The position numbers and the translations under genes are program-made. A DNA stretch of 64,000 nucleotides from Candidatus Omnitrophota bacterium (GTDB taxonomy: Bacteria; Omnitrophota; Gorgyraeia; Gygaellales; Profunditerraquicolaceae): contig JBAZKL010000003.1 in assembly GCA_041650835.1 (NCBI GenBank), forward strand, positions 35,682 to 99,681, in the 5' to 3' direction. Shown in pieces: positions 13,529 to 47,229 of the stretch. The notes under the pieces were generated by a model, which was not told where the DNA came from, did not search any database, and worked only from the letters and a program-made list of their open reading frames with translations. Positions within the stretch are counted from its first letter, which is position 1, and each line of letters begins with the position of its first letter.

Positions 13529-13695
13529 TCTTGCGCCTTAAAAGGGCCTATGCCCAAAGTTTAAGCAATAGAGAATAAAAAAAAACGCCCACACAAACGC
13601 TTTACTTCGCGCCTGTAATGAACGTCAATGTTCAATCTTTATTCTTTATTACTGTCGGCACAACAATGTGCCTAAATAATATACAATAGCTTCTT

Positions 13696-13731
13696 ATTAT
13701 ATACAAGTAAAAAAATAATAATCCTGGTAAC
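13696..13731 (-). promoter_or_regulatory. promoter for fis-gltBD: GTTACCAGG-N21-TATAAT (extended -10 TGTATATAAT) reading toward lower coordinates
   Basis: plus strand ATTATAtacaagtaaaaaaataataatCCTGGTAAC; same architecture at four other loci. Confidence 0.5.
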
Positions 13732-13828
13732 ACTTATTTTCATGAAACCAGTGACTTATAAAGAAGCGCCACCATACATCATTTATACCTGAACAACAAT
13801 AGTTATGTTTAAGAAAGGCTTTATTAAT

Positions 13829-14002
13829 GAACGGGTCCTGTCTTGGACTGTTTTCTCGCGGGGACGTTTGCCCCGCCCCGGCGTGGCGGGGCTGCACTCA
13901 GGTCGGCTGCGTCGCTCTGCCCGACTTCGTTTATCGAGGGGCATCCGTGCCCGCTCCTTGCCTTTATGCCCCACTCGTAAACAGTCCAAGCCACCCGTTC
14001 AC
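13829..14002. ncRNA. structured element E1 (~174 nt; long closing stem, internal hairpins), paralog of E2; candidate regulatory RNA/DNA element upstream of fis-gltBD promoter
   Basis: ends gaacgggtcctgtcttggactg ... cagtccaagccacccgttcac pair; compensatory changes against E2 in at least three stems. Confidence 0.5.
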
Positions 14003-14175
14003 TAACAGAATTACCAACCAAACACATAACACAGGTCTCATGACACAAACAACTGATTTATTAGATAACGAATCTGGCGGTTTTTCGAGCGCCCTCCTTC
14101 TCCCTTTTATAGACTTGCAATATCTTTGGCGGACTTCGGAGGATAAATAATGTCGATTTTAAAATTTTAGTTAGC

Positions 14176-14342
14176 GGGTGCCGAGGCGCGATTTGAGCAG
14201 GACGTAAAGGCGACGAGCGGGCATGGTGTCCGAGCGCATAGCGCGAGGACGAGCGAGGAAGCCGATGCGAGCGAGCTTTTCCACGCCGGGGAAAAGCGAG
14301 CGTTCCTGCGAAAACGCGCCTCGGCAGGACCCGCGAAATTCC
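14176..14342. repeat. long-hairpin element F1 (14-bp terminal inverted repeat gggtGCCGAGGCgcg...cgcGCCTCGGCagg, GAGCG-rich interior), immediately 3' of GltB-like gene
   Basis: paralog at 18274-18432 with covarying terminal repeat. Confidence 0.5.
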
Positions 14343-14452
14343 TAAACGAAAAGATTGACAGGGACATTCTAGTTATACGACTGTAAAATAAAAACGGGGT
14401 TTGCCCGGACAACACCGGACAAACCCCGCACAACTTCAAAAAAACCGGCGTA

Positions 14453-16045
14453 TTATTTCCCGTCGATTATTTTTTCCGCTTCTTTACGGTAGGCATCCAT
14501 CACATACGGTATCCCTGAGATCTCCTCCGCTTCTTTGGTCAAGCTCATCAGGTCTTTGCGTGAGATGCTCTTGAGGCTGAAATTCCGCGAGCCAGCCATC
14601 AATTGCTGCAACCCTACCCTTAACCGCTGGCTGAAAGTATAAATTCCCACAGCTCCCAACGGGATATCTTTCATATCCTTACCGTATTTCTCCGCCAATT
14701 CTTCATAGCAGACGAAGATCTCTTCCGGCTTGGTACCGAATTCTGATACCGTCGGAGGCAAGGTGCCGTTCTTGATCCAATCGCCGACATTCTTACCGAC
14801 GAATCCGGGGATCATGAGCGCCCGGCCCATACACACAGCCTTGACATACGGAGACCCCATAGCGATCACTTTAAAGATATGATCCTCAAGGGCAAAACCA
14901 CCGGCGATAGCGATATCCGGGATCCGCATTTTCTTCTTGGACAATCTGTCGCAGAATTCCTGCGTCAACGCCTGCAGATAGAATGTGGGAATACCCCATT
15001 CCTGCATCATTCTCCAGGGGCTCATACCGGTGCCGCCGGGAGCGCCGTCAATGGTCAAAAGGTCGATCTTTGCCATTGAGGAGAACTTTAACGCCTGCGC
15101 TAACTCCACCATAGAATAGGCGCCGGTCTTAAGCGTTATCCTCTTAAATCCGAGGTCTCTTAATCGTTTTATCTCTTTCATGAAGCCTTCTTCAGAGACA
15201 AAACCTAAACGGGAATGGCGTTCGAATTCTTTGATAGCGCCGGCTTTAAAAGCTTCCTGGGTAGCATGCACTGTCGGGTCCGGGGTAACGATATACCCGC
15301 GCTTCTTCAATTCAAGCGCCCGTTCAAGGGACTTGACCTTGATCTCACCGCCGATACACTTGGCGCCCTGGCCCCATTTCAGTTCAATGGTATCCAATTT
15401 ATGTTTCTTACGCACATATTCAGCAACGCCTAAACGGGTATCTTCGACGTTCATCTGAACTAAGATCTCGCCAAATCCGTCATGGAACCTTTTATAAAGC
15501 TCGATCCTTCTATCCATATCAGGAGCGCTGGTGATCTTGCCTTTACCGTCTAATTCCAGCTTCGGGTCAATACCGCAGACGTTCTCGCCGCAGACGATGG
15601 TGACACCCGAGATCGCGGCACCGATAGCAAAATGCTCCCAATTCTTACGGGCGATCTCCGTTGAACCGAGCGCGCCGGTAAAAATAGGCATTTTCATTCG
15701 AACCTTCATATCCCAGCCGTATTCGGTCTGAGTATCGACCGAAGGGAACGTAGCGGTATCCGGACCTCCCTCAACTCCCTTAGGCATACCGTTTGCGCCC
15801 TGGGCATACCCCTGGATATTCAAATGGGAATAATCAACCGGATAATCCTTGTCGCCTCCGGCGGTCATTTCACCGAACGGACCCGGATAGATCACTTCTC
15901 TTCCTCTAAATGATGATTTGAATACTTCGCAATTACCGCGGCAAGACTCAAGACAACGGGAACATAACCCTGAGCAAGGCACTACATTTTTAGAACGATT
16001 GAATGTACGGGTTGCGTCATTCCCCCCCGGAGTTCGTAAATTCAT
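14453..16045 (-). CDS. glutamate synthase domain-2-like FMN-dependent protein (archaeal-type GltB homolog)
   Basis: 530 aa; glutamate synthase FMN domain-like sequence (GAPGGTGMSPW..., IAGGF) preceded by Cys-rich N-terminus. Confidence 0.75.
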   Translation of the reverse strand: MNLRTPGGNDATRTFNRSKNVVPCSGLCSRCLESCRGNCEVFKSSFRGREVIYPGPFGEMTAGGDKDYPVDYSHLNIQGYAQGANGMPKGVEGGPDTATFPSVDTQTEYGWDMKVRMKMPIFTGALGSTEIARKNWEHFAIGAAISGVTIVCGENVCGIDPKLELDGKGKITSAPDMDRRIELYKRFHDGFGEILVQMNVEDTRLGVAEYVRKKHKLDTIELKWGQGAKCIGGEIKVKSLERALELKKRGYIVTPDPTVHATQEAFKAGAIKEFERHSRLGFVSEEGFMKEIKRLRDLGFKRITLKTGAYSMVELAQALKFSSMAKIDLLTIDGAPGGTGMSPWRMMQEWGIPTFYLQALTQEFCDRLSKKKMRIPDIAIAGGFALEDHIFKVIAMGSPYVKAVCMGRALMIPGFVGKNVGDWIKNGTLPPTVSEFGTKPEEIFVCYEELAEKYGKDMKDIPLGAVGIYTFSQRLRVGLQQLMAGSRNFSLKSISRKDLMSLTKEAEEISGIPYVMDAYRKEAEKIIDGK

Positions 16046-16125
16046 AATCCCCCCTTTTTTGTTGAAGAAAGCCTACCTGCTTAATAATTATGCACATTAT
16101 GCTTATCTTTTGGGCACCATTGCTC

Positions 16126-16243
16126 AAAAAAAAAGACGACCTTCTCACGAGAGAATGGACGCCATTGTCCACTGCAAATCATGTAAATTGTATCTTATCA
16201 TAAAAGGTCGTTTTGTCAACTATTGGATTAATTGGGTAACTGG
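16126..16243 (-). promoter_or_regulatory. promoter (TTGACA-N17-TAAGAT with upstream GGTAAC-type motif) and leader with small hairpins followed by U9 run, for GltB-like gene
   Basis: minus strand GTTACCCAAttaatccaatagTTGACAaaacgaccttttatgaTAAGAT; downstream ggtcgtcttttttttt. Confidence 0.4.
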
Positions 16244-16332
16244 CGCGGAATAAATGACTTTCTTTCCTATAAAAATAGTAACCAAACACACGTAAGTCTA
16301 AGACAATGGTCTATGATCGCAGGAGATCGGGT

Positions 16333-16506
16333 GAACGGGTCCTGTCTTGGTTTGTTTTTCGCAGGGACGTTTGTCCTGCCCCAGCGTGGCAGGACTGCAC
16401 TCCCTTTCAGCCCCTCACTCTGCCCGATAATTTTTTAGAGGGGCAACCATGCCCGCTCGGGGCTTCCAGAGGCCCTGCTCAAAACTAAACCAAGCCACCC
16501 GTTCAC
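16333..16506. ncRNA. structured element E2 (paralog of E1), upstream of GltB-like gene promoter
   Basis: same 174-nt length and termini as E1; stems gcaggg/ccctgc, tcctgcc/ggcagga, cttggttt/aaaccaag covary with E1. Confidence 0.5.
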
Positions 16507-16568
16507 AATAAAAATGCTATCAAGACACATAATACAGATTACAGGACACAAGTATTCCATGGTAGATG

Positions 16569-16730
16569 GAAAACTTTACGGTTTTTGCTTTAAGCGCACA
16601 TTTGAAAACTTTCGGCACAAGGGTTTTATCTGCAGTGCGCAAAGATTTACGGCGAGTTGAAGCACGCTCTTTACGTAAGTCTATTGCGTAAACGAGCCGT
16701 AAACTGTAGCGCACGGCGAAAGTTTTTTTG
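16569..16730. repeat. rod-like structured repeat K1 (aaactttacgg...ccgtaaa termini), paralog at 22896-23066
   Basis: shared blocks aaactttacggtt-tgct-aagcgcacatt-gaaaacttt and gttgaagcacg; 5' gaaaactttcg pairs with 3' cgaaagtttt. Confidence 0.45.
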
Positions 16731-16800
16731 CTGCAGAAAGCAGCACACCTGCGCATTTTCCAATAAGCGCAGGGTGAAGCGTAAGCAAAAAGCGGAAAGT
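16730..16800. repeat. REP-like hairpin unit (ctgcagaaagcagcacacc-tgcgca-ttttccaataa-gcgcagggtg)
   Basis: same family as 60-360, 6075-6150, 33735-33790, 60010-60060. Confidence 0.5.
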
Positions 16801-16920
16801 TATATCGCAAAAATAGTGGATAATAGAATATCTATGGCTAGGGAATCAAGGAAACCGGGGATCGTGGTAAAAAAGTCACAAGACGCAACCGCTGTGATTA
16901 AATCGAACCGTCCCCTATTT

Positions 16921-17577
16921 TTAACGAGGATGCAGCTTCTTCCAGCGCTCAGTAAAAAGAAAAAAGACTCCCGGGCCGAAGGAGCACAACATGACTGCCA
17001 GGCCGAAAGCGATCCCCAGGAATGTGCCAAAGCCGGCGCAGCAATAATTCCTGTAGCGCGCCAGGATATGTAACGGGACCGCCACCAGAAGTTCCAGGAT
17101 ACTGCCGCGAAAAAAGCTCAGGCGGATCCTTTCTAAGAAAGATTGCGGTGCCAGCTTCCTGCTCCAGACATAAAAAACGCATCCCCAAACAACCCAAGAC
17201 GCTCCCAACGCAGCAAGCGCCAGCCATTCTTTCATGTTTTTACCCTGGCTCACGGTTTCATTGATCGCCAAGACTATCCCCGCAACAAGTAATGCCATCA
17301 GCAGAGAAGAAAACACAACCACCGGCACAATGCTACGTTGTGAAACCGGCCGGCGATCGGTCAGGTCTACATGAACATCGAGCAACGCTGCCTGGGCAGC
17401 GAGAAACAAGGCAAAGCCCACCCAATAAGGCCAATGAGTAAAAAGCTCCTCGAATGCTTTGAGATTTATATTATTTTTAGGGTCAAGGCTCAAAAAAGAC
17501 AGGATAGTGACAGGAAAGGTAAAAATGATAATGATCAATCCGTACAGCGCCAATACCACCAGAGCCCATTTTTTCAT
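16921..17577 (-). CDS. integral membrane protein, unknown function
   Basis: 218 aa, several hydrophobic helices. Confidence 0.5.
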   Translation of the reverse strand: MKKWALVVLALYGLIIIIFTFPVTILSFLSLDPKNNINLKAFEELFTHWPYWVGFALFLAAQAALLDVHVDLTDRRPVSQRSIVPVVVFSSLLMALLVAGIVLAINETVSQGKNMKEWLALAALGASWVVWGCVFYVWSRKLAPQSFLERIRLSFFRGSILELLVAVPLHILARYRNYCCAGFGTFLGIAFGLAVMLCSFGPGVFFLFTERWKKLHPR

Positions 17578-17620
17578 ACCATCCCCCTTAATAACAACCG
17601 TATATACCGTTAATTTTAAA

Positions 17621-17748
17621 AGCTAAAGGCTAAATAACAAAAGAAGATTAAAGGTATAAGGTTTAATTTTAAAATTTCCTACCTGCCGGTAGGCAGGAAC
17701 CTTTTGCCTTTGAATTTTCTTTGTTATTTATTCTTTAGCCTTTAAACT
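17621..17748. repeat. AT-rich ~130-bp palindromic element (copy 2 of 4)
   Basis: arms aaaggctaaataacaaaagaagattaaaggtataaggtttaatttt / mirror image, central cctacctgccggtaggcagg. Confidence 0.55.
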
Positions 17749-17759
17749 TACATCAGTAC

Positions 17760-17987
17760 CTATACTTCTTTCTTTATCACCTTGAAAAACTGTAGCTTCT
17801 TACACTGAGGGCATAAACCCAGGGTCCTTTTCCCCTTACTCTTGGCGTAAGCGCGCACGCCGCCGGCAGCCCAATATGATATCGAATAACCGCACTGCGG
17901 GCATTCCAGAAACCATTTCTTGGATTCATCCTCGACTTTCTGAAAAACCTTCTTAGGCAGTAACTTTTTGAGAATTTTGCGTAACAT
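17760..17987 (-). CDS. small zinc-ribbon protein (CxxC...CxxC)
   Basis: 75 aa, CPQCGYS...CPQCKK. Confidence 0.4.
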   Translation of the reverse strand: MLRKILKKLLPKKVFQKVEDESKKWFLECPQCGYSISYWAAGGVRAYAKSKGKRTLGLCPQCKKLQFFKVIKKEV

Positions 17988-18273
17988 AGCGCATCCTCCT
18001 TACCTTACCATAATCCCAAACATATAAATCTCCTATTCCTTCGAAGCCCTACCAATGAGAAAAAAAACCTGCCATATCCCCTTAATTCTAACATCGATCG
18101 ATCTTGCATATATTCCCTTTCTTCCGGTTTATAATAACCTCAACTTAATAAACCTTCCGGCAGTATTACAGATAAATTACCCCTTATTGATTTATTGTAC
18201 CGCTCATATACCGCTTGTCAATGTTTTAAGGGGAGTAAAGCGGGGGGAAACTTGGTCAAGATGAGAGTTATGC

Positions 18274-18432
18274 GGCTGCCGAGGCATGTTTTGAGCGGCA
18301 CATAAGGAAACTTGAGCGGGCACGGCTTGCCGCATTCTCAAATAATTACCAAGAGCGAAAGTTTCCGCTGAGCGCAGATTTTTCACGCTGGGAAAAATCA
18401 AGCGATGCCGCGAAAAATATGCCTCGGCAGCC
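18274..18432. repeat. long-hairpin element F2 (ggctGCCGAGGCat...atGCCTCGGCagcc), immediately 3' of amidotransferase gene
   Basis: paralog of F1. Confidence 0.5.
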
Positions 18433-18475
18433 ACAACATTATCTCAGCTCGAAATCTTTCAGTAGTATAAAATGA

Positions 18476-19180: not shown

Positions 19181-19195
19181 GCGTTACATATTCGC

Positions 19196-21391: not shown

Positions 21392-21418
21392 GATCTCCTC
21401 CTTAGTCAACGATGTCTT

Positions 21419-21466
21419 AAAAAAAAAGCGCCCACATTCGGCCTCTTACCCGGCCACAGTGAACGC
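21419..21466 (-). terminator. terminator-like hairpin plus U9 in the glnN 5' leader, ~27 nt upstream of the start codon (candidate attenuator)
   Basis: minus-strand RNA gcguucacugugGCCggguaagaGGCcgaaugugggcgc-UUUUUUUUU; stem needs G-U pairs so it only forms in the minus-strand transcript. Confidence 0.45.
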
Positions 21467-21534
21467 CCCTGTTCTTAGCTGTGACAATCTCATGTGCACT
21501 GCTATGTGCACATTTACTATACAATAAGATATCA

Positions 21535-21569
21535 TTATATACAAGTAAAAAATGCTTGCGCTTGGTAAC
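21535..21569 (-). promoter_or_regulatory. glnN promoter: GTTACCAAG-N21-TATAAT
   Basis: plus strand ATTATAtacaagtaaaaaatgcttgcgCTTGGTAAC. Confidence 0.5.
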
Positions 21570-21608
21570 TTTTTTTACCCTTAAAACGCGGCTTTTCCAC
21601 AGCCGTCT

Positions 21609-22001
21609 TCACGCCGGTAAAGGCCCCTTCCCCGATTCATCAGGATCATGGACCTTAATGAAATCCTCTAGTTTATGGCCGTCAATGCCGTCCATTCTGA
21701 CAAATTGAATACCTGCTTCGGTAACATTTTCTTTTGCCTGCACAAGCCGCGAAACATCCCTTGTCCAGACAACCCGGCTATAGATCGAAAGCGGAATAAA
21801 ATAATCCGGGACTACCAGCCCCATGGTAAAAGTATCCCCCACGTCAACTTTCTTCGACACCACGATATGGGCGCCTTCTTTTGAAATATCCTTTGTGAAA
21901 GAAAGAAAACGCCCGCAGGGCTTGATCTTCTCGGCATTGCCCTGGCAATGAGCAATGACCCTGGTTAACAACCGATTGGATTCTCTTTTTTCTACCATCA
22001 T
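21609..22001 (-). CDS. PilZ domain protein (c-di-GMP binding)
   Basis: RESNRL and DISKEGA motifs. Confidence 0.6.
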   Translation of the reverse strand: MMVEKRESNRLLTRVIAHCQGNAEKIKPCGRFLSFTKDISKEGAHIVVSKKVDVGDTFTMGLVVPDYFIPLSIYSRVVWTRDVSRLVQAKENVTEAGIQFVRMDGIDGHKLEDFIKVHDPDESGKGPLPA

Positions 22002-22399
22002 GAAACATTCCTCTCTTCCCGGGAAAAACTATTCGTAAACAGCCGGTTTACTTCACCGTGCAGCACGGAAAGGGCGTCTAATTTATAATAGTACCCGTCG
22101 GCATTGTTGACTAAGAACCGTTGTTCGTCTTGCGGATAAACACTGGAGATCAATATTTTGATCCCGGGAAATTCCTTCTTTATCATATCAAAAACATCAA
22201 GGCCGCTTGATTCCGGCAACAAGATATCTAAAAGGGCTATTTTTACGTCCTCATTCCTTCTTAACAGATCAATCGCTTCTTTCCCGTCAGAAGCCTGTAA
22301 GACCTTATAGCCCAAACCCGTTAATTCCTGAAAAAAAAGAGCCCGGATCTTAGGTTCGTCATCAATAACCAGGATCTTATTAATTTGTACCATTCTCAA
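21998..22399 (-). CDS. single-domain response regulator (CheY-like receiver)
   Basis: KILVIDDE...LLDILLPESSG. Confidence 0.75.
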   Translation of the reverse strand: MRMVQINKILVIDDEPKIRALFFQELTGLGYKVLQASDGKEAIDLLRRNEDVKIALLDILLPESSGLDVFDMIKKEFPGIKILISSVYPQDEQRFLVNNADGYYYKLDALSVLHGEVNRLFTNSFSREERNVS

Positions 22400-22742
22400 C
22401 TACCCCTTTAATTTTCTTTAATAACACTTCAATCCCCTGCGATTTATCATAATAATCATGCGCCCAGGAGATCATACGCTTCTGCTCTTCCGGATGATAG
22501 ACGCTCGAAACGATCACCTTGGTATTCTTATGGAACATCTGTATCACCTCGGACAATGTCTCCCCGTCAATATCAGGCATTTTAATATCTAAAAGCACTA
22601 AATCGATAGCTTCTTTCTTCAATATTTCATTGGTTTCCGAAGCATTTGAGGCCTCAATTACCTTAAACCCTTCAGAAACAAGCAAACTCGTATACATATC
22701 ACGGATATTCTTTTCATCATCCACTACCAGGATCTTTTTCAT
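22380..22742 (-). CDS. single-domain response regulator (CheY-like receiver)
   Basis: MKKILVVDDE...LLDIKMPDIDG; track ORF extends 15 codons upstream. Confidence 0.75.
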   Translation of the reverse strand: MKKILVVDDEKNIRDMYTSLLVSEGFKVIEASNASETNEILKKEAIDLVLLDIKMPDIDGETLSEVIQMFHKNTKVIVSSVYHPEEQKRMISWAHDYYDKSQGIEVLLKKIKGVVENGTN

Positions 22743-22895
22743 AGCCGGCTCCTTTTTGTTATGATTATTAATAGTATAGTAAAACACAGATTAAAAGAAC
22801 GTTAAAATAACATTAAGTTTCTTTAATGATTGCAAGACACATGACACAAGTCGCAAGTGGTCAGTAGTCCACAGTCCATAGTCGATAGTAATTGA

Positions 22896-23066
22896 TAAAC
22901 TTTACGGTTATGCTGAAGCGCACATTAGAAAACTTTTTCCAAAAGTCTGCGAGGAATTACGAGGTGTTGAAGCACGATGCTCTCCCGTAAATCTACTGGC
23001 GGAAACACCGAGTAAACCGAAGCAGACGGAAAAAGTTTTCAGTGCGCGCAAGCAAAACCGTAAAGT
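22896..23066. repeat. rod-like structured repeat K2 (paralog of K1)
   Basis: aaactttacggtt...aaaccgtaaagtt termini; 5' gaaaactttttcc pairs with 3' ggaaaaagttttc. Confidence 0.45.
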
Positions 23067-23079
23067 TACATCATAAAAG

Positions 23080-23230
23080 TAGAGAAAACGGAATATTCGA
23101 TAAACAAGAAAATCCGGGGAACCGGTAATCGGGGACTAGAGAATCTGGAGATTGGGGAATCCGGGATGATGGTGACAGGGGACATCCGGAGAACCGAAAA
23201 GCCGGGACAGAGACATTAAGAGAATGAGAA
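23080..23230. repeat. GGGGA-periodic repeat (paralog at 51690-51755)
   Basis: tccggggaaccggtaatcggggactagagaatctggagattggggaatccggg vs tccgggaaaactggtaatccgagactaggggatcgggtgatcgggg. Confidence 0.4.
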
Positions 23231-23236
23231 TAATAC

Positions 23237-24718
23237 TCACGCAAGCGGCAGGGTAACGGTAAACGTGGTCCCTTTTCCCGGCTTGCTTTTGACTTGAATA
23301 TCAGCATTATGGATCTTGGCGATAGACTGGACGATATTTAAACCCAGGCCTATGCCTGAATACGAACTTTTTATCTTCATATCTTTCTGGAAGAATTTAT
23401 TAAAGATCTTCGGCAGGTCTTCCTCGGCAATACCGATACCCGTGTCGGAAACGCTCAAGGCGACTTTATTATTGACGCTCTTTACCGCTATATTTATCTT
23501 TCCTTTCGCGGGAGTGAATTTAACCGCGTTATTGATCAAGTTAAAAACAAGCCTGCGCAAATGCAGCTTGTCCGCCTTGACCATGACCGGCCTCCCCGGG
23601 ATATCCCCGGAAACGATAAGTTCTTTTTCAACAGCCAGGACTTTACATTGCTCAAGGATCTCCCTCAAGAGTTCCGCCAGATCTATCTGCTCAAAATGAA
23701 AGACCCCTGTTTTATATTCAAGCCGGGTCAGCAACAATAGATCCTCGATCATTTTTATCATTCTCTGGGCTTCTTCGAGGTTCACATTGAGGACCGTCTT
23801 ATATTCATCGATGCTTCGCTCTTTACGCAAGGCGACTTCAGTCTGCCCCCGGATTATCGCCAGCGGCGTTTTTAACTCATGCGCGGCATGCGAGCTGAAT
23901 TCACTCACATATTGAAATGACTTCTCCAGGCGCGATATCATATCATTAAAAGCTTCGACCAGAGGCTTGATCTCTTCATCGATATGCCCGGGCTTGACCC
24001 GCTCACGAAGGTCTTCATAGGTTATTTTACGCGCTGTCTCCGTGATCCTGACCACAGGCTTTAAAATACGCGTCGTAAGGATGCCTCCGATAAAAAAACC
24101 CAGGATCAGGATGACCGGGACACTCACCCAGCGGTAATACAACATGATATTAATGACATGCTGCAGGGGCTCAAGCGGCGTACAGACCTTTAAGACATAT
24201 AACGTTTTATTATTCAGGAAGAACGGCATACTGATCATGCGAAGATCGACGCCCTTGTACCGCACATCCGTCAGCATTTTTTGTTTATCGGTGATCACAT
24301 CGGAGCTTTTTAATATCAGCGATACCAGATCAGGAGGCATATTCCCGGAAGAAACAACCACTTCTCCCGAAGGATTCGCAAAAACGACGTAATCATTTTT
24401 CAGACCCAGGGTATCGATGTTTTTAAGCCACAACGCGTGCAGCCGCGCTACTTTATCCTGATCACCGTGAACCGCCTCTTCCCCGATCGCCCTTTTAAAT
24501 GAAAAAATAAAAGACCAATGGTCATGGCCCAGGATATTGACATATGAAGCTACCGTATTGACCAGCGCATTGGCTTTCATTTCAAGGCGCTCGTCAAAAT
24601 CACGGTATAAATTATAATAGAGGTTTATATAGATAAAGCTGGTATACACCGCGAGGATCAATCCCAAGATAGCGGTGTACAAAATACTGATCTTAAAACG
24701 CACGGAATTAAATTTCAT
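23237..24718 (-). CDS. sensor histidine kinase (TM-HAMP-HisKA-HATPase)
   Basis: H-box SHELKTPL, G-boxes. Confidence 0.85.
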   Translation of the reverse strand: MKFNSVRFKISILYTAILGLILAVYTSFIYINLYYNLYRDFDERLEMKANALVNTVASYVNILGHDHWSFIFSFKRAIGEEAVHGDQDKVARLHALWLKNIDTLGLKNDYVVFANPSGEVVVSSGNMPPDLVSLILKSSDVITDKQKMLTDVRYKGVDLRMISMPFFLNNKTLYVLKVCTPLEPLQHVINIMLYYRWVSVPVILILGFFIGGILTTRILKPVVRITETARKITYEDLRERVKPGHIDEEIKPLVEAFNDMISRLEKSFQYVSEFSSHAAHELKTPLAIIRGQTEVALRKERSIDEYKTVLNVNLEEAQRMIKMIEDLLLLTRLEYKTGVFHFEQIDLAELLREILEQCKVLAVEKELIVSGDIPGRPVMVKADKLHLRRLVFNLINNAVKFTPAKGKINIAVKSVNNKVALSVSDTGIGIAEEDLPKIFNKFFQKDMKIKSSYSGIGLGLNIVQSIAKIHNADIQVKSKPGKGTTFTVTLPLA

Positions 24719-24725
24719 GAACCCC

Positions 24726-25394
24726 TTACCCTTTTAAAATATAGCCGACACCGCGGACAGTATGGATGAGCTCCTTTTTAAAGCCTTTATCTATTTTTTT
24801 ACGCAGGAAATTAGTATACACATCGATGATATTGGTAAAGCTGTCGAAATCGTCCCCCCAGACATGCTCTGAGATCATCGTCCTGGTCACGACCTGGCCG
24901 GCATGCATCATCAAATATTCCAACAAGGCGTATTCTTTCGCGGAAAGGCCGATCTCCTTTCCGGAGCGCCGGACCTTGCGGGTAAGCTGATCCAGCTCCA
25001 GGTCTTCGACCTTAAGCGAGGTTGTCTTGACCGTCGCATCCCGGCGTAAAAGCGCGCGCACCCTGGCCAAAAGTTCTTCAAACGCAAAAGGCTTGGTAAG
25101 ATAATCATCCGCCCCGGCGTCCAACCCTGAAACTTTTTCTTCGACCGACCCGCGGGCGGTGAGCATTAAAACAGGGACATGGATCTTTTTCCCGCGCAGC
25201 TGCCGGCAGATCCCCCTGCCATCGCCGTCAGGCAACATGACATCAAGGACGATCAGATCATAAGGATTGGTTTCCGCCAGAAAAAGCGCTTTTTCCCCGG
25301 TAGGAGCAAGGTCAACCGTATAATGCTCCTCCCGCAAGCCGCGCTTAATAAAATCAGCGATACGGATTTCATCTTCCACTAAGAGGATCCTCAT
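24726..25394 (-). CDS. OmpR-family response regulator
   Basis: MRILLVEDE receiver plus winged-helix C-terminus. Confidence 0.85.
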
Positions 25395-25542
25395 GGCCTC
25401 AGCCCTTCTTCCTTCCGGAAACGGAAAAAGCAATTCCCTGTCCCGCCCTTAAGGAATTGCCTATAGACTATCTTTCTTTAGCATATCGCCACCTCCGGTG
25501 ACTGATATACGCTCTTATTCCAGCGGCGCTTCAAAAACGGTT

Positions 25543-26031: not shown

Positions 26032-26049
26032 GACGCAATGATGTATAAT

Positions 26050-26526: not shown

Positions 26527-26759
26527 CTGTCACCTCCGATAAAAAACCTCATATCCAATATTCATTCGAGAACAACTTCCATTACGTCACACCTATTCTA
26601 CAGCTAAACAAGACATGATTCAATCAAATTCGGCGCAGCAGGCGCGGTATTCATCTATAGAAAAAACCGGATTAAGCGGTTTTCTGCTTACAGCCGGTTT
26701 TTCCCCATGTTTATATTTAATTCTCGATATTTATCCCGGATATCGCGCTTCCGCCGGGA

Positions 26760-27101
26760 TCATCCGATTGCTCCTGGACCTCGTTCTTCGGTACGGATAC
26801 GCACGCATTCCTTAAGGTCTAAGACGAAGATCTTTCCGTCGCCGGTCTCCCCTGTCTTGGCTCCCTTGACGATCGCTTTTATCGTCGGCTCTACATAATT
26901 ATCGTTCACCGCGATCTCAAGGCGGATCTTTCGCAGAAGGTTCCCCGTTTCTTTGGCGCCCCGGTACACCTCCGTAACACCCTTCTGCCTGCCGTGCCCC
27001 AACACTTCGCTTACCGTGATCAGGTTAACTTCCGCTTTATATAACTCCTCTTTTACTTCCTCTAACTTGTATGGTTGTATTATCGCTATTATTAACTTCA
27101 T
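26760..27101 (-). CDS. glnK: nitrogen regulatory protein P-II (copy 1)
   Basis: [17 protein letters not shown]..., T-loop RYRGxxY-like region; >99% nt identity to copy at 28862-29206. Confidence 0.9.
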
Positions 27102-27119
27102 ACATCCTCCTTTTCCAAA

Positions 27120-27225
27120 GTCACCAGACACATGTCACAAGTCACAGGTTACAGATCGCAGATGCAAACTGTTCCAATTGTTCTTGTGTCTTGTGACCTG
27201 CGACTTGTGACTCTATATATTCTTT
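27120..27225. repeat. inverted-repeat element with CAGACACATGTCACAAG motif between amt1 and glnK1
   Basis: gtcacaagtcacaggt ... gacctgcgacttgtgac. Confidence 0.4.
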
Positions 27226-28454
27226 TACTCCAATACCGTATACGCCCTCTCCCGGTGCTGCGTCAGGTCAAGGCCCATCATCTCTTCCTTCTCCGTCACG
27301 CGCATCCTAAAGAATATATCCACAAGTTTATATATAACAACCGTGCCGATAAAAGTATAAACTACAGCAACCCCCAAACCGGCCGCCTGGATCAATAATT
27401 GCTTCGGGTTCCCGAAAAACAATCCGTCAGCGCCAGCCGGGTTGACCGCCTTGGAAGCGAATAACCCGGTCGCGAGAGTCCCCAGGATACCTCCAAGCCC
27501 ATGGACACCGAAGGCATCCAGAGAATCGTCATAGCCGAATTTCGGCTTGATCACTGCTACGCCGATAAAACAAACAATGCTGGCAAATATCCCTATTACG
27601 AGCGCGGAAGACGGGCTGACAAAACCGGAAGCAGGGGTAATGGTCGCAAGTCCTGCGATAGAACCGGTAACAATACCGAATACGGTCGGCTTACCGTTGC
27701 GTATCCATTCCAAAAGCGCCCAGCTTAATCCGGCGCTGGCCGCGGCGGCGTTCGTCGCCACAAAAGTACTGACTGCCAGCCCGTTAGCCGCCAGAGCGCT
27801 GCCCGCGTTAAAACCGAACCACCCGAACCAAAGCAGCGCCGTCCCTAAAACTACCAAAGGAAGGTTATGCGGAGCAGGGACATTATGTTCAAGGTTTTTT
27901 CTCCTGCCGATTATTAAGGTAGTCACGAGCGCTGCTATTCCCGCGCTCGTATGCACAACAATGCCCCCCGCGAAATCAAGCACTCCTAAATTCTTAAGCC
28001 AACCTCCCTCACCCCAGACCCAATGGCAAAGAGGGGCGTAAATAAAGGTGCTCCATAAAAGAGTAAATACCAAAAATGCCGAGAAGCGGATCCTTTCCGC
28101 GAAAGCTCCGATAATAAGCGCAGGAGTAATGATAGCGAACATCGCCTGGAATATCATGAATGCCTGGTGCGGGATCGTCCCGGCATACGCGGCATACGGC
28201 TCTACCCCCACGCCGTTCAATCCAAACCAAAGCGAACCGCCCCAAAAACCCTTCCCCGGAGCAAACGAAAGGCTATAGCCAAAAAGCATCCAATGCACCG
28301 TCAACAAACATAAAACAAAGAAACATTGCATCAAGACGCTCAAAATGTTCTTTCTTCTGACCATCCCTCCATAGAAAAAGGCCAATCCCGGGGTCATTAA
28401 CATAACAAACGCGCTCGAGAATAAGACAAATACCGTATCTCCCGAATTAATCAT
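27225..28454 (-). CDS. amt: ammonium transporter (Amt family), copy 1
   Basis: 409 aa, 11 TM, typical Amt signature. Confidence 0.9.
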   Translation of the reverse strand: MINSGDTVFVLFSSAFVMLMTPGLAFFYGGMVRRKNILSVLMQCFFVLCLLTVHWMLFGYSLSFAPGKGFWGGSLWFGLNGVGVEPYAAYAGTIPHQAFMIFQAMFAIITPALIIGAFAERIRFSAFLVFTLLWSTFIYAPLCHWVWGEGGWLKNLGVLDFAGGIVVHTSAGIAALVTTLIIGRRKNLEHNVPAPHNLPLVVLGTALLWFGWFGFNAGSALAANGLAVSTFVATNAAAASAGLSWALLEWIRNGKPTVFGIVTGSIAGLATITPASGFVSPSSALVIGIFASIVCFIGVAVIKPKFGYDDSLDAFGVHGLGGILGTLATGLFASKAVNPAGADGLFFGNPKQLLIQAAGLGVAVVYTFIGTVVIYKLVDIFFRMRVTEKEEMMGLDLTQHRERAYTVLE

Positions 28455-28547
28455 AACCGCTCCTCTCTGCTGATTTGCTCAACTGTTTACACAATTGAAT
28501 AAAAGAACCCAATAAAAATTCCTCCATAGAAAAACGAAGGATTATTG

Positions 28548-28735
28548 GCACCCCGGCTTAAAGGAGTGCCGGGTATGCGCCTTCTGCGGCAACACCCCGG
28601 CTTAAAGGAGTGCCGGGTATGCGCCTTCTGCGGCAACACCCCGGCTTAAAAGGATGTGCCGGGTGTGTTGCTTTCTGCGTACACCCCGCGCTATTCTGTA
28701 TTGCGCGGGTGTGTTGCTTTCTGCAACAAAGGCGT
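28548..28735. repeat. tandem ~44-bp hairpin repeats (x3) plus REP-like unit in amt1 leader
   Basis: cccggcttaaaggagtgccgggtatgcgccttctgcggcaacac x3, then caccccgcgctattctgtattgcgcgggtg. Confidence 0.6.
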
Positions 28736-28822
28736 TTACACACAACTGTTACTATACAATCGTGCATAAACGCCTCTGTTTTGAAAACACAAGCACTGCA
28801 ATGTGCTATTTTATTCTTCTCT

Positions 28823-28855
28823 CTTTACAAGTAAGATAGCACATCTCCTGGTAAC
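28823..28855 (-). promoter_or_regulatory. amt1 promoter region with CCTGGTAAC motif (weaker -10)
   Basis: plus strand TCTTTAcaagtaagatagcacatctCCTGGTAAC. Confidence 0.35.
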
Positions 28856-28861
28856 TATTAT

Positions 28862-29206
28862 TTATCCGATCGCCATAGCTCCCTTTTCTTCGGTACGGAT
28901 ACGCACGCATTCCTTAAGGTCTAAGACGAAGATCTTTCCATCGCCGGTCTCCCCTGTCTTGGCTCCCTTGACGATCGCTTTTATCGTCGGCTCTACATAA
29001 TTATCGTTCACCGCGATCTCAAGGCGGATCTTTCGCAGAAGGTTCCCCGTTTCTTTGGCGCCCCGGTACACCTCCGTAACACCCTTCTGCCTGCCGTGCC
29101 CCAACACTTCGCTTACCGTGATCAGGTTAACTTCCGCTTTGTATAACTCCTCTTTTACTTCCTCTAACTTGTATGGTTGTATTATCGCTATTATTAACTT
29201 CATCAA
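28862..29206 (-). CDS. glnK: nitrogen regulatory protein P-II (copy 2)
   Basis: 2 nt differences from copy 1 over ~315 nt. Confidence 0.9.
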
Positions 29207-29291
29207 AAACCTCCCTTATTCGGTTTTCGGTACTCGGTGCTCGGTTGTCGGTGACCATGTTAGCCGATAACCGAACACCGATAACCCCTGA

Positions 29292-30521
<1,230 letters not shown>

Positions 30522-30764
30522 CTTTATCCTCCTTATTCATTCACACTCATGGGCCTTACCCATTTATTCAAATTACAAACCTCAAACCCGACGCACCCTT
30601 CTCATCGCTGAAAGAGGCATACTCTGTTTATTATTCCTTATGAAAACCCGCCCGTCATGCTGCTTGCCTGTGTCATTTCAACAGCCTAAACAACACACTT
30701 GAATACCCAGTTGTGCAAAAGAGCACAACAAAACCTTACTCCTCCTTTCGTAAAAAACCCTCTT

Positions 30765-30941
30765 TTAAAGCCCTAATTTTTCTTTCACTAATTTCGCGTA
30801 AAGTTTATTGATGCGCTCCGTCTTAAGCCAGCGCTCCAGAGTCGATATCTGCACATCCATCATCCTTGAAAGGTCAAAAAGAGTATATCCATGCTCGACC
30901 TTATAACTCCTCAATTTTCCGATCAGCTCTTTGTCCAGCAT
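30765..30941 (-). CDS. small HTH protein (58 aa) immediately after third P-II gene (start 3 nt after its stop)
   Basis: own translation MLDKELIGKLRSYKVEHGYTLFDLSRMMDVQISTLERWLKTERINKLYAKLVKEKLGL; below ORF-track size cutoff; coordinates approximate. Confidence 0.35.
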   Translation of the reverse strand: MLDKELIGKLRSYKVEHGYTLFDLSRMMDVQISTLERWLKTERINKLYAKLVKEKLGL

Positions 30942-30944
30942 AGG

Positions 30945-31283
30945 TTAAACAGCCTTTTCGCCCTTTTCTCCGGTACGGATCCTTACCACATCCTCGACCT
31001 GGTAAATAAATATTTTTCCGTCTCCTATTTCCCCGGTCCTGGCGATCGAAGAGATAGCGGTAACGATCTTATCAAGATCCTGGTCCTTAATTACCATCTC
31101 TATCTTTATTTTTGGCAGAAAGTTCACCTTGTATTCCCTGCCCCTGAACTGTTCAATAAGCCCTTTTTGCCTGCCATGGCCTTCGATATGCGTAACCATC
31201 ATCCCCGGATAGCCGTATTTTTCCAACGCTTCGGTTATTTCATCGAGCTTCTCCACCCTTACCACTGCCTCTATCTTTTTCAT
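30945..31283 (-). CDS. nitrogen regulatory protein P-II (divergent third copy)
   Basis: MKKIEAVVRVEKLDEITEAL...GHGRQKG. Confidence 0.85.
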   Translation of the reverse strand: MKKIEAVVRVEKLDEITEALEKYGYPGMMVTHIEGHGRQKGLIEQFRGREYKVNFLPKIKIEMVIKDQDLDKIVTAISSIARTGEIGDGKIFIYQVEDVVRIRTGEKGEKAV

Positions 31284-31340
31284 CGCTTCTATCCTCCTGC
31301 GCCTGTCCCCTGAAAAAGAAGACAGGCGCGAAATTCATAA

Positions 31341-32726
31341 TTAATTATTATATGTATAGAAATTAGGGTACGCGGGAGTCCCATGTTCAGGTATATCCAA
31401 CCCTTTTAATTCCTCCTGAGGAGAGACCCGTATACCAAAGATCTTATCCATCACTTTGAACATGATCAATCCGAGCACAAATGCCCAGGTAACGCACACG
31501 GCTGCCCCGATAACTTGAGCAATAAGCTGTCCTGCTCCGCCGCCGTAGAATAACCCTCTTACCAAAGGCGCCTCAGTGCTGCCGAGGCCGTAGGTCCCGT
31601 CGGCAAAGAGCCCGACGCTGATGAGCCCCCATACGCCATTCATGGCATGCACGCTTACCGCCCCGACGGGATCATCTATTCCCCGCGCTTCCCAGAAATA
31701 AACGCTCATTACCACTATCGCGCCGGCGATCAAACCTATCACAACCGCAGCCCATGCCTCAACCCAGGCGCAGGGAGCGGTAATTGCCACTAACCCGGCC
31801 AAACAGCCGTTGAGCATCATGCCGACATCCCATTTTTTTGTCTTCGCGAAAACAAGCAGCAAAGCGCACGCAGCTCCGGCGGCGGCAGCTAAATTGGTAT
31901 TCACCGCAACGACCGATATCCTTAACTGATGCGCGGAAAATGTCGACCCGGGATTAAACCCGAACCACCCGAACCATAAGATAAAAGTACCCAGCGCCGC
32001 CAAAGTGATACTATGCCCGGGGATAGCTTTGGGTTTACCATCCTTGGCGAACTTACCGAAACGAGGGCCTAAGACGATAGCTCCCGCCAACCCGACAAAG
32101 CCTCCTATAGTATGCACGACTCCGGAACCGGCGAAATCAACGTGGCCGATACCAAAGGGAAGTTTCGCAAGCCATCCTCCTCCCCAAACCCAATGCCCGT
32201 ATATAGGATAAATTATCGCCGTAACAATCAGGCTGTAAAAGAAATACGCGCTGAATTTCATGCGTTCGGCAACCGCCCCTGAAACAATGGTCGCCGCGGT
32301 ACCGGCAAAAACCAGCTGCCAGAAAAACATCAGGTATTTCCCTACATCATAATTCTCGCCGTGGAGAAACCAACCGGACGTCCCGATGAGCCCGTGGGCA
32401 TCCTTGCCCATCATGAACGCGAACCCGAACGCCATAAACACTAAAGACGCAATGACAAAATCAATTGTGTTCTTCGCCATCAAATTGGTGGCGTTCTTCG
32501 CCCTGCAAAATCCCGCTTCAACCATGGCAAAACCCGCTTGCATGAAAAAAACAAGGAACCCGCACACCAATATCCATACATAATCCACTGGAGCCTGTGG
32601 ATTAGCGGCAAGAGTCTGCGCCCCGGAAGGATCCTGCGCCCATACTGCCTGCGCGAGCCCCAGGACCCCTAATAATACTAATACGAACTTTTTAAACATG
32701 GTTAACCTCGCTTTTTTAGAATGCAT
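31341..32726 (-). CDS. amtB: ammonium transporter with signal peptide (AmtB-like), copy 3
   Basis: 461 aa, cleavable N-terminal signal then Amt core. Confidence 0.9.
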   Translation of the reverse strand: MHSKKARLTMFKKFVLVLLGVLGLAQAVWAQDPSGAQTLAANPQAPVDYVWILVCGFLVFFMQAGFAMVEAGFCRAKNATNLMAKNTIDFVIASLVFMAFGFAFMMGKDAHGLIGTSGWFLHGENYDVGKYLMFFWQLVFAGTAATIVSGAVAERMKFSAYFFYSLIVTAIIYPIYGHWVWGGGWLAKLPFGIGHVDFAGSGVVHTIGGFVGLAGAIVLGPRFGKFAKDGKPKAIPGHSITLAALGTFILWFGWFGFNPGSTFSAHQLRISVVAVNTNLAAAAGAACALLLVFAKTKKWDVGMMLNGCLAGLVAITAPCAWVEAWAAVVIGLIAGAIVVMSVYFWEARGIDDPVGAVSVHAMNGVWGLISVGLFADGTYGLGSTEAPLVRGLFYGGGAGQLIAQVIGAAVCVTWAFVLGLIMFKVMDKIFGIRVSPQEELKGLDIPEHGTPAYPNFYTYNN

Positions 32727-33600
32727 AGCTTAAATATACGCCCCCATAAAACCTGCTTTTCTGGTTGCCGTTACCTTTATCGCTTATGTTCCCCCAGGGA
32801 ACGGAATAATTGATATTCGGTTTCATCGACAGGCGCTTGGTAAGGGGCATGGTAATGCCTGCCCCGATCGCGGCATCGCCGCCTTTACTTCTATAATACT
32901 GTTTATTGTTATGTCCTACATGACCCGCAAGATCCAGGCTCATAGAAGTTTTCTTTACGGTGAAGGGAATGCTCTTGGAAAGATTGAGCATCGTATAACT
33001 TCCTTCACCACCGCCATCTTCTTTCTTTCCGTAATCATAATAATACGTTACCGAGGGAGATAAGAAGACTTTTGGGAAAGCCAAGCTACCATACACTTCG
33101 CGGCTGAAACCTTTCGGAGCGCCGTCCGTGGGGAGCGCGTCGGGAAAATCATAGTAGATATGCCCCAGCGAAACATCCACATGCTTGAAGTTATAGGTAT
33201 AATCCAGGATATAATCGGTTTCACTTGATTTCAGAAGATCATTATTCTTAAGGTCATGGCTGACCCAATAACCGAACTTGAGGCGCCCAAACTTCGATTC
33301 AGGGCTCTTAATATAAAAACCCGGCTGGATCACGGGATCGCCGTCAAGCATAATGCCTCGCCATATATAAATAGAACTGTAGTTGAGATCACCGGAAACT
33401 TCAAATCCCAAATCAGAAAGGATCCCTTCCCCCGTCGATTCAGTAGCTGCCGACACGACATGCGCAGAAGGATTACGTACCGCGCTTAAATTCGGATCGA
33501 CCTCCTCAGCGAAAGAAGTAGAGCAAAAAAACAATCCTGCCACTATGGCGAACACACTATAAAACACATACCTCATTTTCTCCTCCTTTGTTATAGTCAC
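32716..33600 (-). CDS. outer-membrane beta-barrel (porin-like) protein, first gene of porin-amt-PII operon
   Basis: signal peptide, alternating amphipathic strands, C-terminal ...SYAF. Confidence 0.55.
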   Translation of the reverse strand: MTITKEEKMRYVFYSVFAIVAGLFFCSTSFAEEVDPNLSAVRNPSAHVVSAATESTGEGILSDLGFEVSGDLNYSSIYIWRGIMLDGDPVIQPGFYIKSPESKFGRLKFGYWVSHDLKNNDLLKSSETDYILDYTYNFKHVDVSLGHIYYDFPDALPTDGAPKGFSREVYGSLAFPKVFLSPSVTYYYDYGKKEDGGGEGSYTMLNLSKSIPFTVKKTSMSLDLAGHVGHNNKQYYRSKGGDAAIGAGITMPLTKRLSMKPNINYSVPWGNISDKGNGNQKSRFYGGVYLSYAF

Positions 33601-33734
33601 GGTTTTCTTACGGCGTACATTTTCTGAAGCACATTGCGTAAAACCGTCTTTTACCGACTTTTTCGTCTTAAAGTAAAAAGGCGCCTTTTAATATTCCCCC
33701 CTGGAATAAAAAAGACGCCTGCGTCTTAACTTCT

Positions 33735-33790
33735 GCTTACACCCGGCGCAGATTGGTATTGCGCCGGTGTGCCGCTTGCTGCGGCAAATA
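33735..33790. repeat. REP-like hairpin unit
   Basis: ctgcttacacccggcgcagattggtattgcgccggtgtgccgcttgctgcggc. Confidence 0.45.
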
Positions 33791-33878
33791 AAAAAGCGTT
33801 CTTTTTCAAGAACGCCCTCGATCTATCTCTATTGCTACTTTGCGAATTGCGACACTTCAACGTGTTTGTAACTTCTTA

Positions 33879-33913
33879 TACTTATACAAGTGTGAAAACC
33901 TTGTTCCTGGTAA
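33879..33913 (-). promoter_or_regulatory. promoter for porin-amt3-PII operon: GTTACCAGG-N21-TATAAG
   Basis: plus strand CTTATAcaagtgtgaaaaccttgttCCTGGTAAC. Confidence 0.45.
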
Positions 33914-33918
33914 CCTCT

Positions 33919-36213: not shown

Positions 36214-36224
36214 AAGAATAAAAA

Positions 36225-47213: not shown

Positions 47214-47229
47214 AACTCCTCCTGAATAT

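Follow-up and report, generated by a model that had tools for sequence, protein, structure and literature searches.

We describe a candidate promoter class in bacteria of the phylum Omnitrophota, a widespread and mostly uncultured group. The window, a stretch of 64,000 nucleotides (nt) from a Candidatus Omnitrophota bacterium (assembly GCA_041650835.1, contig JBAZKL010000003.1, positions 35,682 to 99,681 of the forward strand), contains four copies of a two-box motif, GTTACC-N17-ACTTGTA, each in front of nitrogen-assimilation genes, and one of them directly follows a gene for a divergent sigma-70-family protein of the extracytoplasmic function (ECF) type. That the motif is a real, phylum-wide cis-element of a nitrogen regulon is practically certain. 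In the reading we favour, to which we assign a probability of about 0.7, it would be served by a dedicated nitrogen sigma factor that acts together with ANTAR antitermination in a feed-forward arrangement.

All four exact copies in the window lie on the minus strand. No copies with one or two mismatches were found in the window, and copies with three mismatches were at chance level; by our arithmetic, the exact 13-base pattern is expected ~0.002 times per 128 kb. The nine-nucleotide sequence CCTGGTAAC, allowing up to one mismatch, matched the window 22 times against 7.5 expected. The copies and the genes behind them, assigned with Pfam and NCBIfam, are as follows.

13702-13731, minus strand: gltBD copy, GTTACC at 13726-13731 and ACTTGTA at 13702-13708, predicted start ~13694/13695; followed by the operon of HTH_8 (fis-like), gltB and gltD genes
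21540-21569, minus strand: glnN copy, GTTACC at 21564-21569 and ACTTGTA at 21540-21546, predicted start ~21532/21533; followed by glnN (GSIII, type III glutamine synthetase) and then a GATase gene
28826-28855, minus strand: amt-glnK copy, exact motif, predicted start ~28818/28819; followed by amt (27225-28454) and glnK/PII (26760-27131), both on the minus strand
33885-33914, minus strand: porin-operon copy, exact motif, 4 nt after the stop codon of the sigma gene, predicted start ~33877/33878; followed by the TorF-like porin-amt-PII-amt-PII operon (28862-33600, minus strand)

An earlier, first-pass annotation of this DNA had pointed to four minus-strand sites with a common layout in front of nitrogen-assimilation genes, and both statements hold. 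The details of that layout fared less well. The shared 9-mer GTTACCAGG is not present at the glnN site, which reads GTTACCAAG; the spacing of ~21 nt is wrong, the real gap being 14 nt from the 9-mer and 17 nt from GTTACC to ACTTGTA; and the AAGAAG ending, present at the gltBD, porin and amt-glnK sites, is missing at the glnN site and occurs in just 5 of the 136 sites collected across the phylum (see below). The porin site had been placed correctly except for one base at its 5' end, the true end being 33914. An arrangement before the GltB-like gene, described as related, turned out to be a canonical TTGACA-N16-TAAGAT promoter at ~16192-16219 that lacks an ACTTGTA box and falls outside the family.

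For comparison across the phylum we used 80 genome loci around homologues of the sigma protein with 41-60% identity, plus one at 95%. These Omnitrophota loci, 1.14 Mb in all, contain the exact 13-base pattern 140 times, always on the strand of the sigma gene, and the resulting site set comprises 136 non-redundant copies from ~80 genomes, across which the 13 specified bases are invariant, the loci having been searched with the exact pattern. In this set, which is biased towards the nitrogen cluster because most loci were selected via the sigma gene, 134 of the 136 copies have a porin, amt, PII, glnN, glnA, HTH_8-gltB or amino-acid permease gene within 30-650 nt downstream. A scan of metagenome contigs selected by the pattern alone, independently of the sigma gene, is free of that bias: it returned 138 sites, 107 of them before the nitrogen gene classes and 11 too short to call (127 callable), and among the 20 without a recognised gene 4 keep the typical leader and ~16 look like chance matches. 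Neither in the genome loci nor in the metagenome contigs was the motif equally common before unrelated genes, and the earlier proposal of one cis-regulatory class marking a nitrogen regulon is thus borne out (134/136 and 107/127 sites, respectively). One locus, L084, carries a single copy followed by a c-di-AMP riboswitch (RF00379, 81 bits), which begins 15 nt after the predicted start, and then by kdpA and kdpB (L084 2603-7012). Because this copy precedes a different leader, the motif behaves as a portable promoter. The same copy would tie potassium uptake to the same sigma in that genome.

The anatomy of the sites, with offsets counted from the first G of GTTACC, resembles that of a promoter. 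The logo of the 136 sites consists of an A-tract at -8 to -4, (G/A)GTTACCA(G/A), nine unconserved positions, TTTTTT (a T-tract at offsets 17-22) and ACTTGTA, followed 7-8 nt later by a conserved purine (A in 77% at offset 37); the A-tract is stronger still at the copies that do not adjoin the sigma gene. Every site is oriented along the coding strand of the downstream genes, and the hexamers TTACCA and CTTGTA stand 17 bp apart, the canonical spacing of the sigma-70 family. The 9-mer had been considered too distant to act as a -35 element; however, the invariant ACTTGTA, 17 nt from GTTACC, puts the 5' box at the canonical -35 distance. Before offset 36 no conserved leader hairpin begins; the starts of more than 40 fall at offsets 36-42. 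These positions bound the start at ~7-8 nt after ACTTGTA, which in turn points to ACTTGTA as the -10 region, and judging from the sequence we consider it quite likely that the motif is a promoter of this form.

No other conserved promoter-like element was present in the logo within 60 nt around the sites. TAnnnT occurs at offsets 30-35 in 8/136 sites, the best single offset reaches 40/136, and no offset carries a conserved -10-like hexamer. The GTA-N8-TAC dyad is not conserved, nor are GTTACCA and ACTTGTA inverted repeats of each other. The sigma-54 consensus (GG-N10-GC; TGGCAC-N5-TTGC) is absent from the conserved logo positions, and the downstream GCAC-N6-GUGC element is an RNA hairpin, not a sigma-54 element. 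ACTTGTA as a general -35 for a downstream sigma-70 -10 was also tried and rejected, with TTGTAN-N16-18-TAnnnT fitting only 6/136 sites. A possible second sigma-70-type promoter was seen in the gltB and glnN leaders, where TTGTAT, overlapping ACTTGTA, is followed by N17 and TATATT or TATAGT (13677-13706 and 21515-21544, both minus strand); the same layout occurs in the glutamine synthetase leaders at L002:13271, L005:16670 and L082:15950. Such a promoter, using the -10 box of the alternative sigma as its -35, might keep glutamine synthetase and glutamate synthase expressed at a basal level. In the copies adjacent to the sigma gene, the sequence past the box, GUAAUGUAAG, can pair with CUUGUA. 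There, offsets 30-39 (33875-33884 in the window) form a conserved initial region, GTAATGTAAG (T34 92%, G35 96%, A37 93%), which is complementary to CUUGUA when G-U pairs are included and could form a 6-bp stem with a GUAA loop; this feature is absent in the other promoter classes.

Other operons of the window are served by TTGACA/TATAAT-type promoters, and GTTACC/ACTTGTA therefore constitutes a different promoter class. Similar sigma-70-type promoters lie 170-280 nt upstream of the sigma genes in 12 other loci. Those of the window are:

36390-36417, minus strand: promoter of the nadE-sigma operon, TTGACA at 36412-36417, N16, TATATT at 36390-36395, with TG at 36397-36398
43219-43246, minus strand: promoter of the ATP-synthase operon, TTGACA at 43241-43246, N16, TATAAT at 43219-43224
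16130-16219, minus strand: control region of the GltB-like 530-residue gene, TTGACA-N16-TAAGAT, then GGAC-AAUGGC-GUCC and a terminator; outside the GTTACC/ACTTGTA class

The protein most plausibly reading the motif is encoded immediately upstream of the porin-operon copy.

33919-34458, minus strand: divergent ECF-like sigma-70-family factor, 179 residues from the third ATG; the open reading frame (ORF) extends to 34482 (187 residues)

The deposited protein has 186 residues, one fewer than the 187-residue ORF of the window. The protein of the window aligns with the sigma70-ECF superfamily model, TIGR02937, along its full length (residues 14-183 against model positions 3-164 of 165), and a sequence search of the PDB gave only distant matches to FliA and SigH. 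The structural neighbours in the PDB of its AlphaFold model (mean predicted local distance difference test, pLDDT, 75) are all sigma factors: SigH, SigB, sigma-28 and the ECF sigmas SigL, SigW and SigE. At least 1322 homologues exist, all from Candidatus Omnitrophota where a name is attached; several have precomputed Pfam matches to GerE, the LuxR-type helix-turn-helix. The invariant residues cluster in two places, a predicted helix of sigma-2 (K63-R81) and the beginning of the final predicted helix (S164-K170), which is the putative sigma-4 recognition helix, and we infer that they parallel the invariance of the two DNA boxes.

The sigma gene and the motif are closely linked. The stop codon of the gene overlaps the G of GTTACC in 25/72 genomes and lies within 8 nt of it in 56/72, and on the metagenome contigs selected by pattern the gene is directly upstream of 26/31 porin- or PII-first operons. 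On its upstream side the gene has nadE, the GAF-ANTAR gene (see below) or a GltB-like gene as its neighbour, on its downstream side a porin, amt or PII gene. The contexts of three homologues are alike: nadE or GAF-ANTAR, sigma, porin-amt-PII, glutamine synthetase, HTH_8-gltBD. In one locus, L026, both sites read ATTACC, while its sigma differs at many positions. Judged by the linkage of gene and site, the adjacent sigma probably reads the motif. The Lrp/AsnC protein suggested as regulator in the first-pass annotation gives way to a better candidate, the sigma-70-family protein, whose gene ends next to or within the -35 box.

Downstream of the predicted starts, every leader in the window carries an ANTAR-type antiterminator together with a terminator, a layer of which the first-pass annotation had made no mention. 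ANTAR target RNAs comprise two hexaloop hairpins, P1 and P2, whose loops have A in the first and G in the fourth position, and P2 overlaps a terminator; such elements have been predicted in front of the PII, amt, glutamine synthetase and glutamate synthase genes of other phyla (PMC3369931). The leaders behind the four promoter copies are listed here, with scores of a covariance model, R1, and z values from folding where available.

13576-13672, minus strand: gltBD leader; P1 GGCAC-AUUGUU-GUGCC at 13657-13672, P2 GAAC-AUUGAC-GUUC at 13620-13633; the terminator stem uses the 3' arm of P2, U-run ~13576; R1 15.2 bits, z = -4.9
21419-21512, minus strand: glnN leader; P1 UGUGCAC-AUAGCA-GUGCACA at 21493-21512, P2 GAAC-AGGGGC-GUUC at 21461-21474, terminator at 21419-21470; z = -5.5
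28725-28807, minus strand: amt-glnK leader; P1 AGCAC-AUUGCA-GUGCU at 28792-28807, P2 AAAC-AGAGGC-GUUU at 28768-28781, long hairpin at 28725-28780 with a weak U-run only; R1 21.7 bits, z = -8.2
33675-33865, minus strand: porin leader with two modules, R1 34.0 and 23.3 bits
33790-33865, minus strand: module 1 of the porin leader; P1 ACAC-GUUGAA-GUGU at 33852-33865, P2 GAUC-GAGGGC-GUUC at 33810-33823, terminator at 33790-33817
33675-33725, minus strand: module 2 of the porin leader; GAC-GCAGGC-GUC and a terminator

In all four leaders a strong hairpin uses the 3' arm of P2 as its own 5' arm, and only at amt-glnK is the U-run weak. Both hexaloops of the porin leader have G rather than A at position 1, whereas the other three leaders have A. 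Across the phylum, terminators were found in 105/136 leaders versus 13% of shuffles, and a G4 hexaloop hairpin overlapping the terminator in 86/136 versus 3%, the hairpin finder having required G at loop position 4; position 1 is A in 42/63 first loops (L1) and 63/86 second loops (L2). When 43 leaders are aligned, pairing in P1 reaches 98.8%, with AU-to-GC changes that compensate each other, P2 is invariant, and pairing in the terminator helix reaches 94.7%, with 33 double changes, percentages that are partly circular because the alignment was drawn from the picks of the hairpin finder. The R1 model built from this alignment matches all four window leaders, strongly at porin and amt-glnK and weakly at gltBD and glnN; in the loci it has 109 matches, 108 of them on the sense strand. 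Its match at the leader of the GltB-like gene is weak (9 bits). Rfam assigned no family to the leaders, either at gathering thresholds over the whole window or at E <= 5 over 13200-34000, where only chance miRNA-like matches appeared. The palindrome GCAC-N6-GTGC, with 3 matches versus 0.32 expected, was considered as an NtrC-like operator for HTH_8. This reading was dropped in favour of ANTAR P1, because the hexaloops are of the A-x-x-G type, the stems change in a compensatory manner and terminators overlap. On these sequence features, it is very likely that the leaders are ANTAR-controlled attenuators.

The same device precedes further genes of the window, among them the sigma gene itself and the operon behind the GAF-ANTAR gene.

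36221-36417, minus strand: nadE-sigma leader region, two ANTAR-type modules with terminators at 36318-36383 and 36221-36299 (R1 and fold)
43056-43246, minus strand: ATP-synthase leader, ANTAR-like hairpins and two terminators, R1 match at 43056-43131 (26.7 bits)
43258-44124, minus strand: GAF-ANTAR gene (Pfam GAF, GAF_2, ANTAR); start codon uncertain, the listed ORF overlapping the upstream aminotransferase gene

The region upstream of sigma carries an AAGAC-AnAGAA-GUCUU hairpin overlapping a terminator in 53/59 genomes where the sigma gene has its own upstream region. The GAF-ANTAR gene is kept in related clusters and is directly upstream of sigma in 20/80 loci. The ATP-synthase leader comes directly after the GAF-ANTAR gene, and its hairpins suggest a link between ATP-synthase expression and the same antiterminator. 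For nadE, the listed ORF begins with a GTG (36279) inside the second terminator module of the leader; the real start is probably the ATG at 36211-36213.

In the mechanism that we propose, RNA polymerase with the ECF-like sigma (33919-34458) would recognise (G/A)GTTACCA as the -35 and ACTTGTA as the -10 element and would begin transcription at the conserved purine 7-8 nt downstream of ACTTGTA. The sigma would thereby turn on the core ammonium-assimilation regulon: porin-amtB-glnK, amtB-glnK, glnN or glnA, and fis-like-gltBD. Each transcript would then meet the intrinsic terminator in its leader, to be bypassed only when the GAF-ANTAR protein binds both hexaloop hairpins; bypass upon binding is expected because the 3' arm of P2 doubles as the 5' arm of the terminator. 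The sigma gene itself would be read from a sigma-70-type promoter through an ANTAR-gated terminator. Since the sigma leader carries the same ANTAR device, the antiterminator would control both how sigma is made and whether the transcripts of its targets are completed. As the signal, the GAF domain probably senses a metabolite that reflects nitrogen status.

Several points weigh against this mechanism, besides the selection of most loci via the sigma gene and the partial circularity of the leader alignment mentioned above. What ties the sigma to the motif is adjacency and geometry alone. The TIGR02937 score of the protein, 42.1 bits, is just under the NCBIfam cut-off of 42.9, and the E-values of the fold search are weak, the best being 1.6e-3. 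In none of the 80 loci does a copy of the motif lie directly upstream of the sigma gene, so that sigma lacks the autoregulation typical of ECF factors, and no anti-sigma gene was recognisable among the neighbours of sigma in the loci. We know of no characterised -10 element that resembles CTTGTA. Finally, the pairing of GUAAUGUAAG with CUUGUA suggests that part of the box may function as RNA or in single-stranded form.

These points have to be set against three other explanations of the sites. The first-pass annotation had taken them for class II, NtcA-like activator sites with an extended -10 of the sequence TATAAT; more generally, GTTACCAGG could be the site of a class II activator (NtcA/CRP-like or other) near -40, with the housekeeping sigma using a downstream -10 (TATAAT or TGTAAG) and no -35. 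TATAAT does lie just past ACTTGTA at the gltBD and glnN sites, an Lrp/AsnC gene and the HTH_8 gene are conserved in the cluster, and the nitrogen regulons of other phyla use activator-dependent promoters (NtcA, NtrC), which counts in favour of this explanation. However, TATAAT is missing at the other two window sites, and TAnnnT stands at the required position in those 8 of the 136 sites only, whereas ACTTGTA is invariant at a fixed 17 nt. Moreover, the motif is asymmetric, unlike GTA-N8-TAC, and a start near offset 42 would truncate the hairpins that begin at offsets 36-40. The cluster contains no CRP-family gene that we could see, and the housekeeping promoters of the same window have normal -35 boxes. 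An activator site is, accordingly, quite unlikely.

Adjacency of gene and site would suit any DNA-binding protein, and the sigma-like protein could be an ordinary transcription factor, as the GerE matches of several homologues and the borderline sigma-family scores might be taken to indicate; alternatively, HTH_8 or AsnC could bind a two-box operator that overlaps an unrecognised promoter. This is unlikely in view of the full-length sigma70-ECF match and of top structural neighbours that are sigma factors without exception, and in view of the sites themselves: a pair of dissimilar boxes spaced by 17 bp, followed by a purine after 7-8 nt, is the kind of target that a sigma recognises, and the surrounding 60 nt offer no other conserved promoter-like element. 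It is very unlikely that the motif acts in RNA, as a processing site or structure within transcripts arriving from upstream, for example by read-through of the sigma gene. The sigma-adjacent copy does sit directly after a gene, and in such copies CUUGUA and UGUAAG could form the 6-bp stem with the GUAA loop, with pairing-compatible bases at 68-96% per position; yet the complementary segment is absent in the glnN, glnA and gltB classes, where ACTTGTA is invariant all the same. No conserved partner exists for GTTACC, and the 17-nt spacer shows conservation neither of sequence nor of pairing. Where a copy comes after a PII or glnN gene, that gene's own terminator lies in between, and the copy before the kdp riboswitch has a different leader. 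A promoter read by the neighbouring sigma thus remains the explanation that we favour.

Among known systems, the proposed factor resembles the ECF (group 4) sigmas, such as E. coli sigmaE and B. subtilis sigmaW, whose bipartite promoters and usual autoregulation are summarised in PMC7826278. It shares with them the small two-domain build (~180 residues), a conserved bipartite -35/-10 promoter with fixed spacing and 'AC' in the -35 box, a regulon that can be read from the motif, and the co-encoding of the sigma gene with the genes it would control. Unlike them, it lacks autoregulation through its own motif and an adjacent anti-sigma, its synthesis is apparently ANTAR-gated, and its regulon is core nitrogen assimilation rather than an envelope or stress response. 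To our knowledge, CTTGTA (-10) and GTTACC (-35) match no known ECF promoter motif. From its sequence we class the element as an alternative-sigma promoter of ECF-like type that departs from the type in autoregulation and whose start site and binding are predicted.

With sigma-54 (RpoN)/NtrC of Proteobacteria the Omnitrophota system would share the use of an alternative sigma for glnA, amtB-glnK and other genes from promoters that depart from the housekeeping consensus. The factor is, however, of the sigma-70 type, the geometry is -35/-10 instead of -24/-12 (GG-N10-GC), and no AAA+ enhancer-binding protein was seen, only the stand-alone NtrC-like HTH_8 protein. The NtcA promoters of cyanobacteria (GTA-N8-TAC, class II) likewise mark nitrogen genes (glnN, glnA, amt) and lack a canonical TTGACA; in contrast to them, the present sites have no dyad and no conserved TAN3T at the required distance, ACTTGTA has no counterpart there, and no CRP-family gene was found in the cluster. 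Both the NtcA-type and the sigma-54-type readings fail on their own defining features.

The leaders correspond to the ANTAR nitrogen regulons (EutV, NasR and AmiR, and those predicted in Desulfotomaculum and Pelobacter; PMC3369931) in the hexaloop pair, the overlap of P2 with the terminator, the target genes and the nearby ANTAR gene. They differ in that the sensor is a GAF domain, a combination described as uncharacterised in PMC3369931, and in that some Omnitrophota leaders have tandem modules or P2 only. The device is also found before nadE, the ATP-synthase operon and the genes for sigma and the GltB-like protein. The closest analogue is the GnfL/GnfM-GnfK/GnfR system of Geobacter sulfurreducens (PMC2995071), which has two layers as well, initiation and, at a subset of targets, ANTAR-type relief of termination. 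There, the master system activates both the nitrogen genes and the antitermination system (PMC2995071), whereas in Omnitrophota the order appears reversed, with antitermination gating the synthesis of the initiation factor. Furthermore, a sigma-70-family factor would take the place of a two-component enhancer-binding protein, and ammonium assimilation that of nitrogen fixation.

The ANTAR layer is a new instance of an already known device. No description of the promoter class or of its candidate sigma was found in the searchable literature on Omnitrophota sigma factors and nitrogen control, including searches with the motif strings, and neither Omnitrophica nor nitrogen comes up in the main text of the ECF reclassification paper. 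The broader proposition, that Omnitrophota replaced the classical regulators (sigma-54/NtrC, NtcA, GlnR/TnrA) by a phylum-specific nitrogen sigma of the sigma-70 family, in a coherent feed-forward loop with a GAF-ANTAR protein gating sigma, all target leaders and the nadE and ATP-synthase operons, seems to us slightly more probable than its opposite. If true, this would be an undescribed architecture of global nitrogen control, readable from sequence alone in an uncultured phylum. The result amounts to a complete candidate regulon, made up of an invariant promoter code, a candidate sigma, an antiterminator RNA and its candidate protein. If confirmed, it would add a new answer to the old question of how ammonium assimilation is turned on in bacteria, with a sigma-70-family factor in the role that sigma-54 has elsewhere, and an orthogonal pair of sigma and promoter would be gained. 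The motif is also a simple marker for annotating nitrogen-regulated operons in metagenome-assembled genomes of Omnitrophota, the kdp operon behind the c-di-AMP riboswitch being an example.

Other features of the window concern the neighbours of the promoter copies and a repeated element. The first gene of the gltBD operon encodes a small protein.

13286-13528, minus strand: HTH_8 protein of 80 residues, Fis/NtrC C-terminal type, first gene of the gltBD operon

This stand-alone HTH_8 protein resembles the DNA-binding C-terminus of NtrC or Fis, and in practically all Omnitrophota loci long enough to include gltB its gene opens the gltBD operon. Upstream of the glnN promoter (21609-25433, minus strand) are genes for a PilZ-domain protein, two single-domain response regulators, a HAMP histidine kinase and an OmpR-type regulator; no link between these genes and the nitrogen motif was found.

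A two-hairpin element occurs across Omnitrophota. It consists of a short hairpin (e.g., GCCC-AGUAA-GGGC), ACACC, a variable stem, an AAUCC-type loop, the return stem and GGGUG(U), with a bulged G. The copies in the window are:

28550-28727, minus strand: ~4 tandem copies of the two-hairpin element
33737-33786, minus strand: two-hairpin element
36257-36305, minus strand: two-hairpin element
43110-43155, minus strand: two-hairpin element
near 3950-3976, plus strand: two-hairpin element
near 47225-47255, plus strand: two-hairpin element
near 63660-63689, plus strand: two-hairpin element

Further copies lie at L002 10641-10690 and in many other loci. Rfam gave no match to the ACACC...GGGUG element. 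A riboswitch was considered and rejected, since the element is found on both strands and in many unrelated intergenic regions and is thus similar to repetitive extragenic palindromic (REP) sequences. It often stands right after terminators or right before a Shine-Dalgarno sequence, and its stems vary between copies yet stay paired. For a REP-like element, it is unusually well conserved for a whole phylum.

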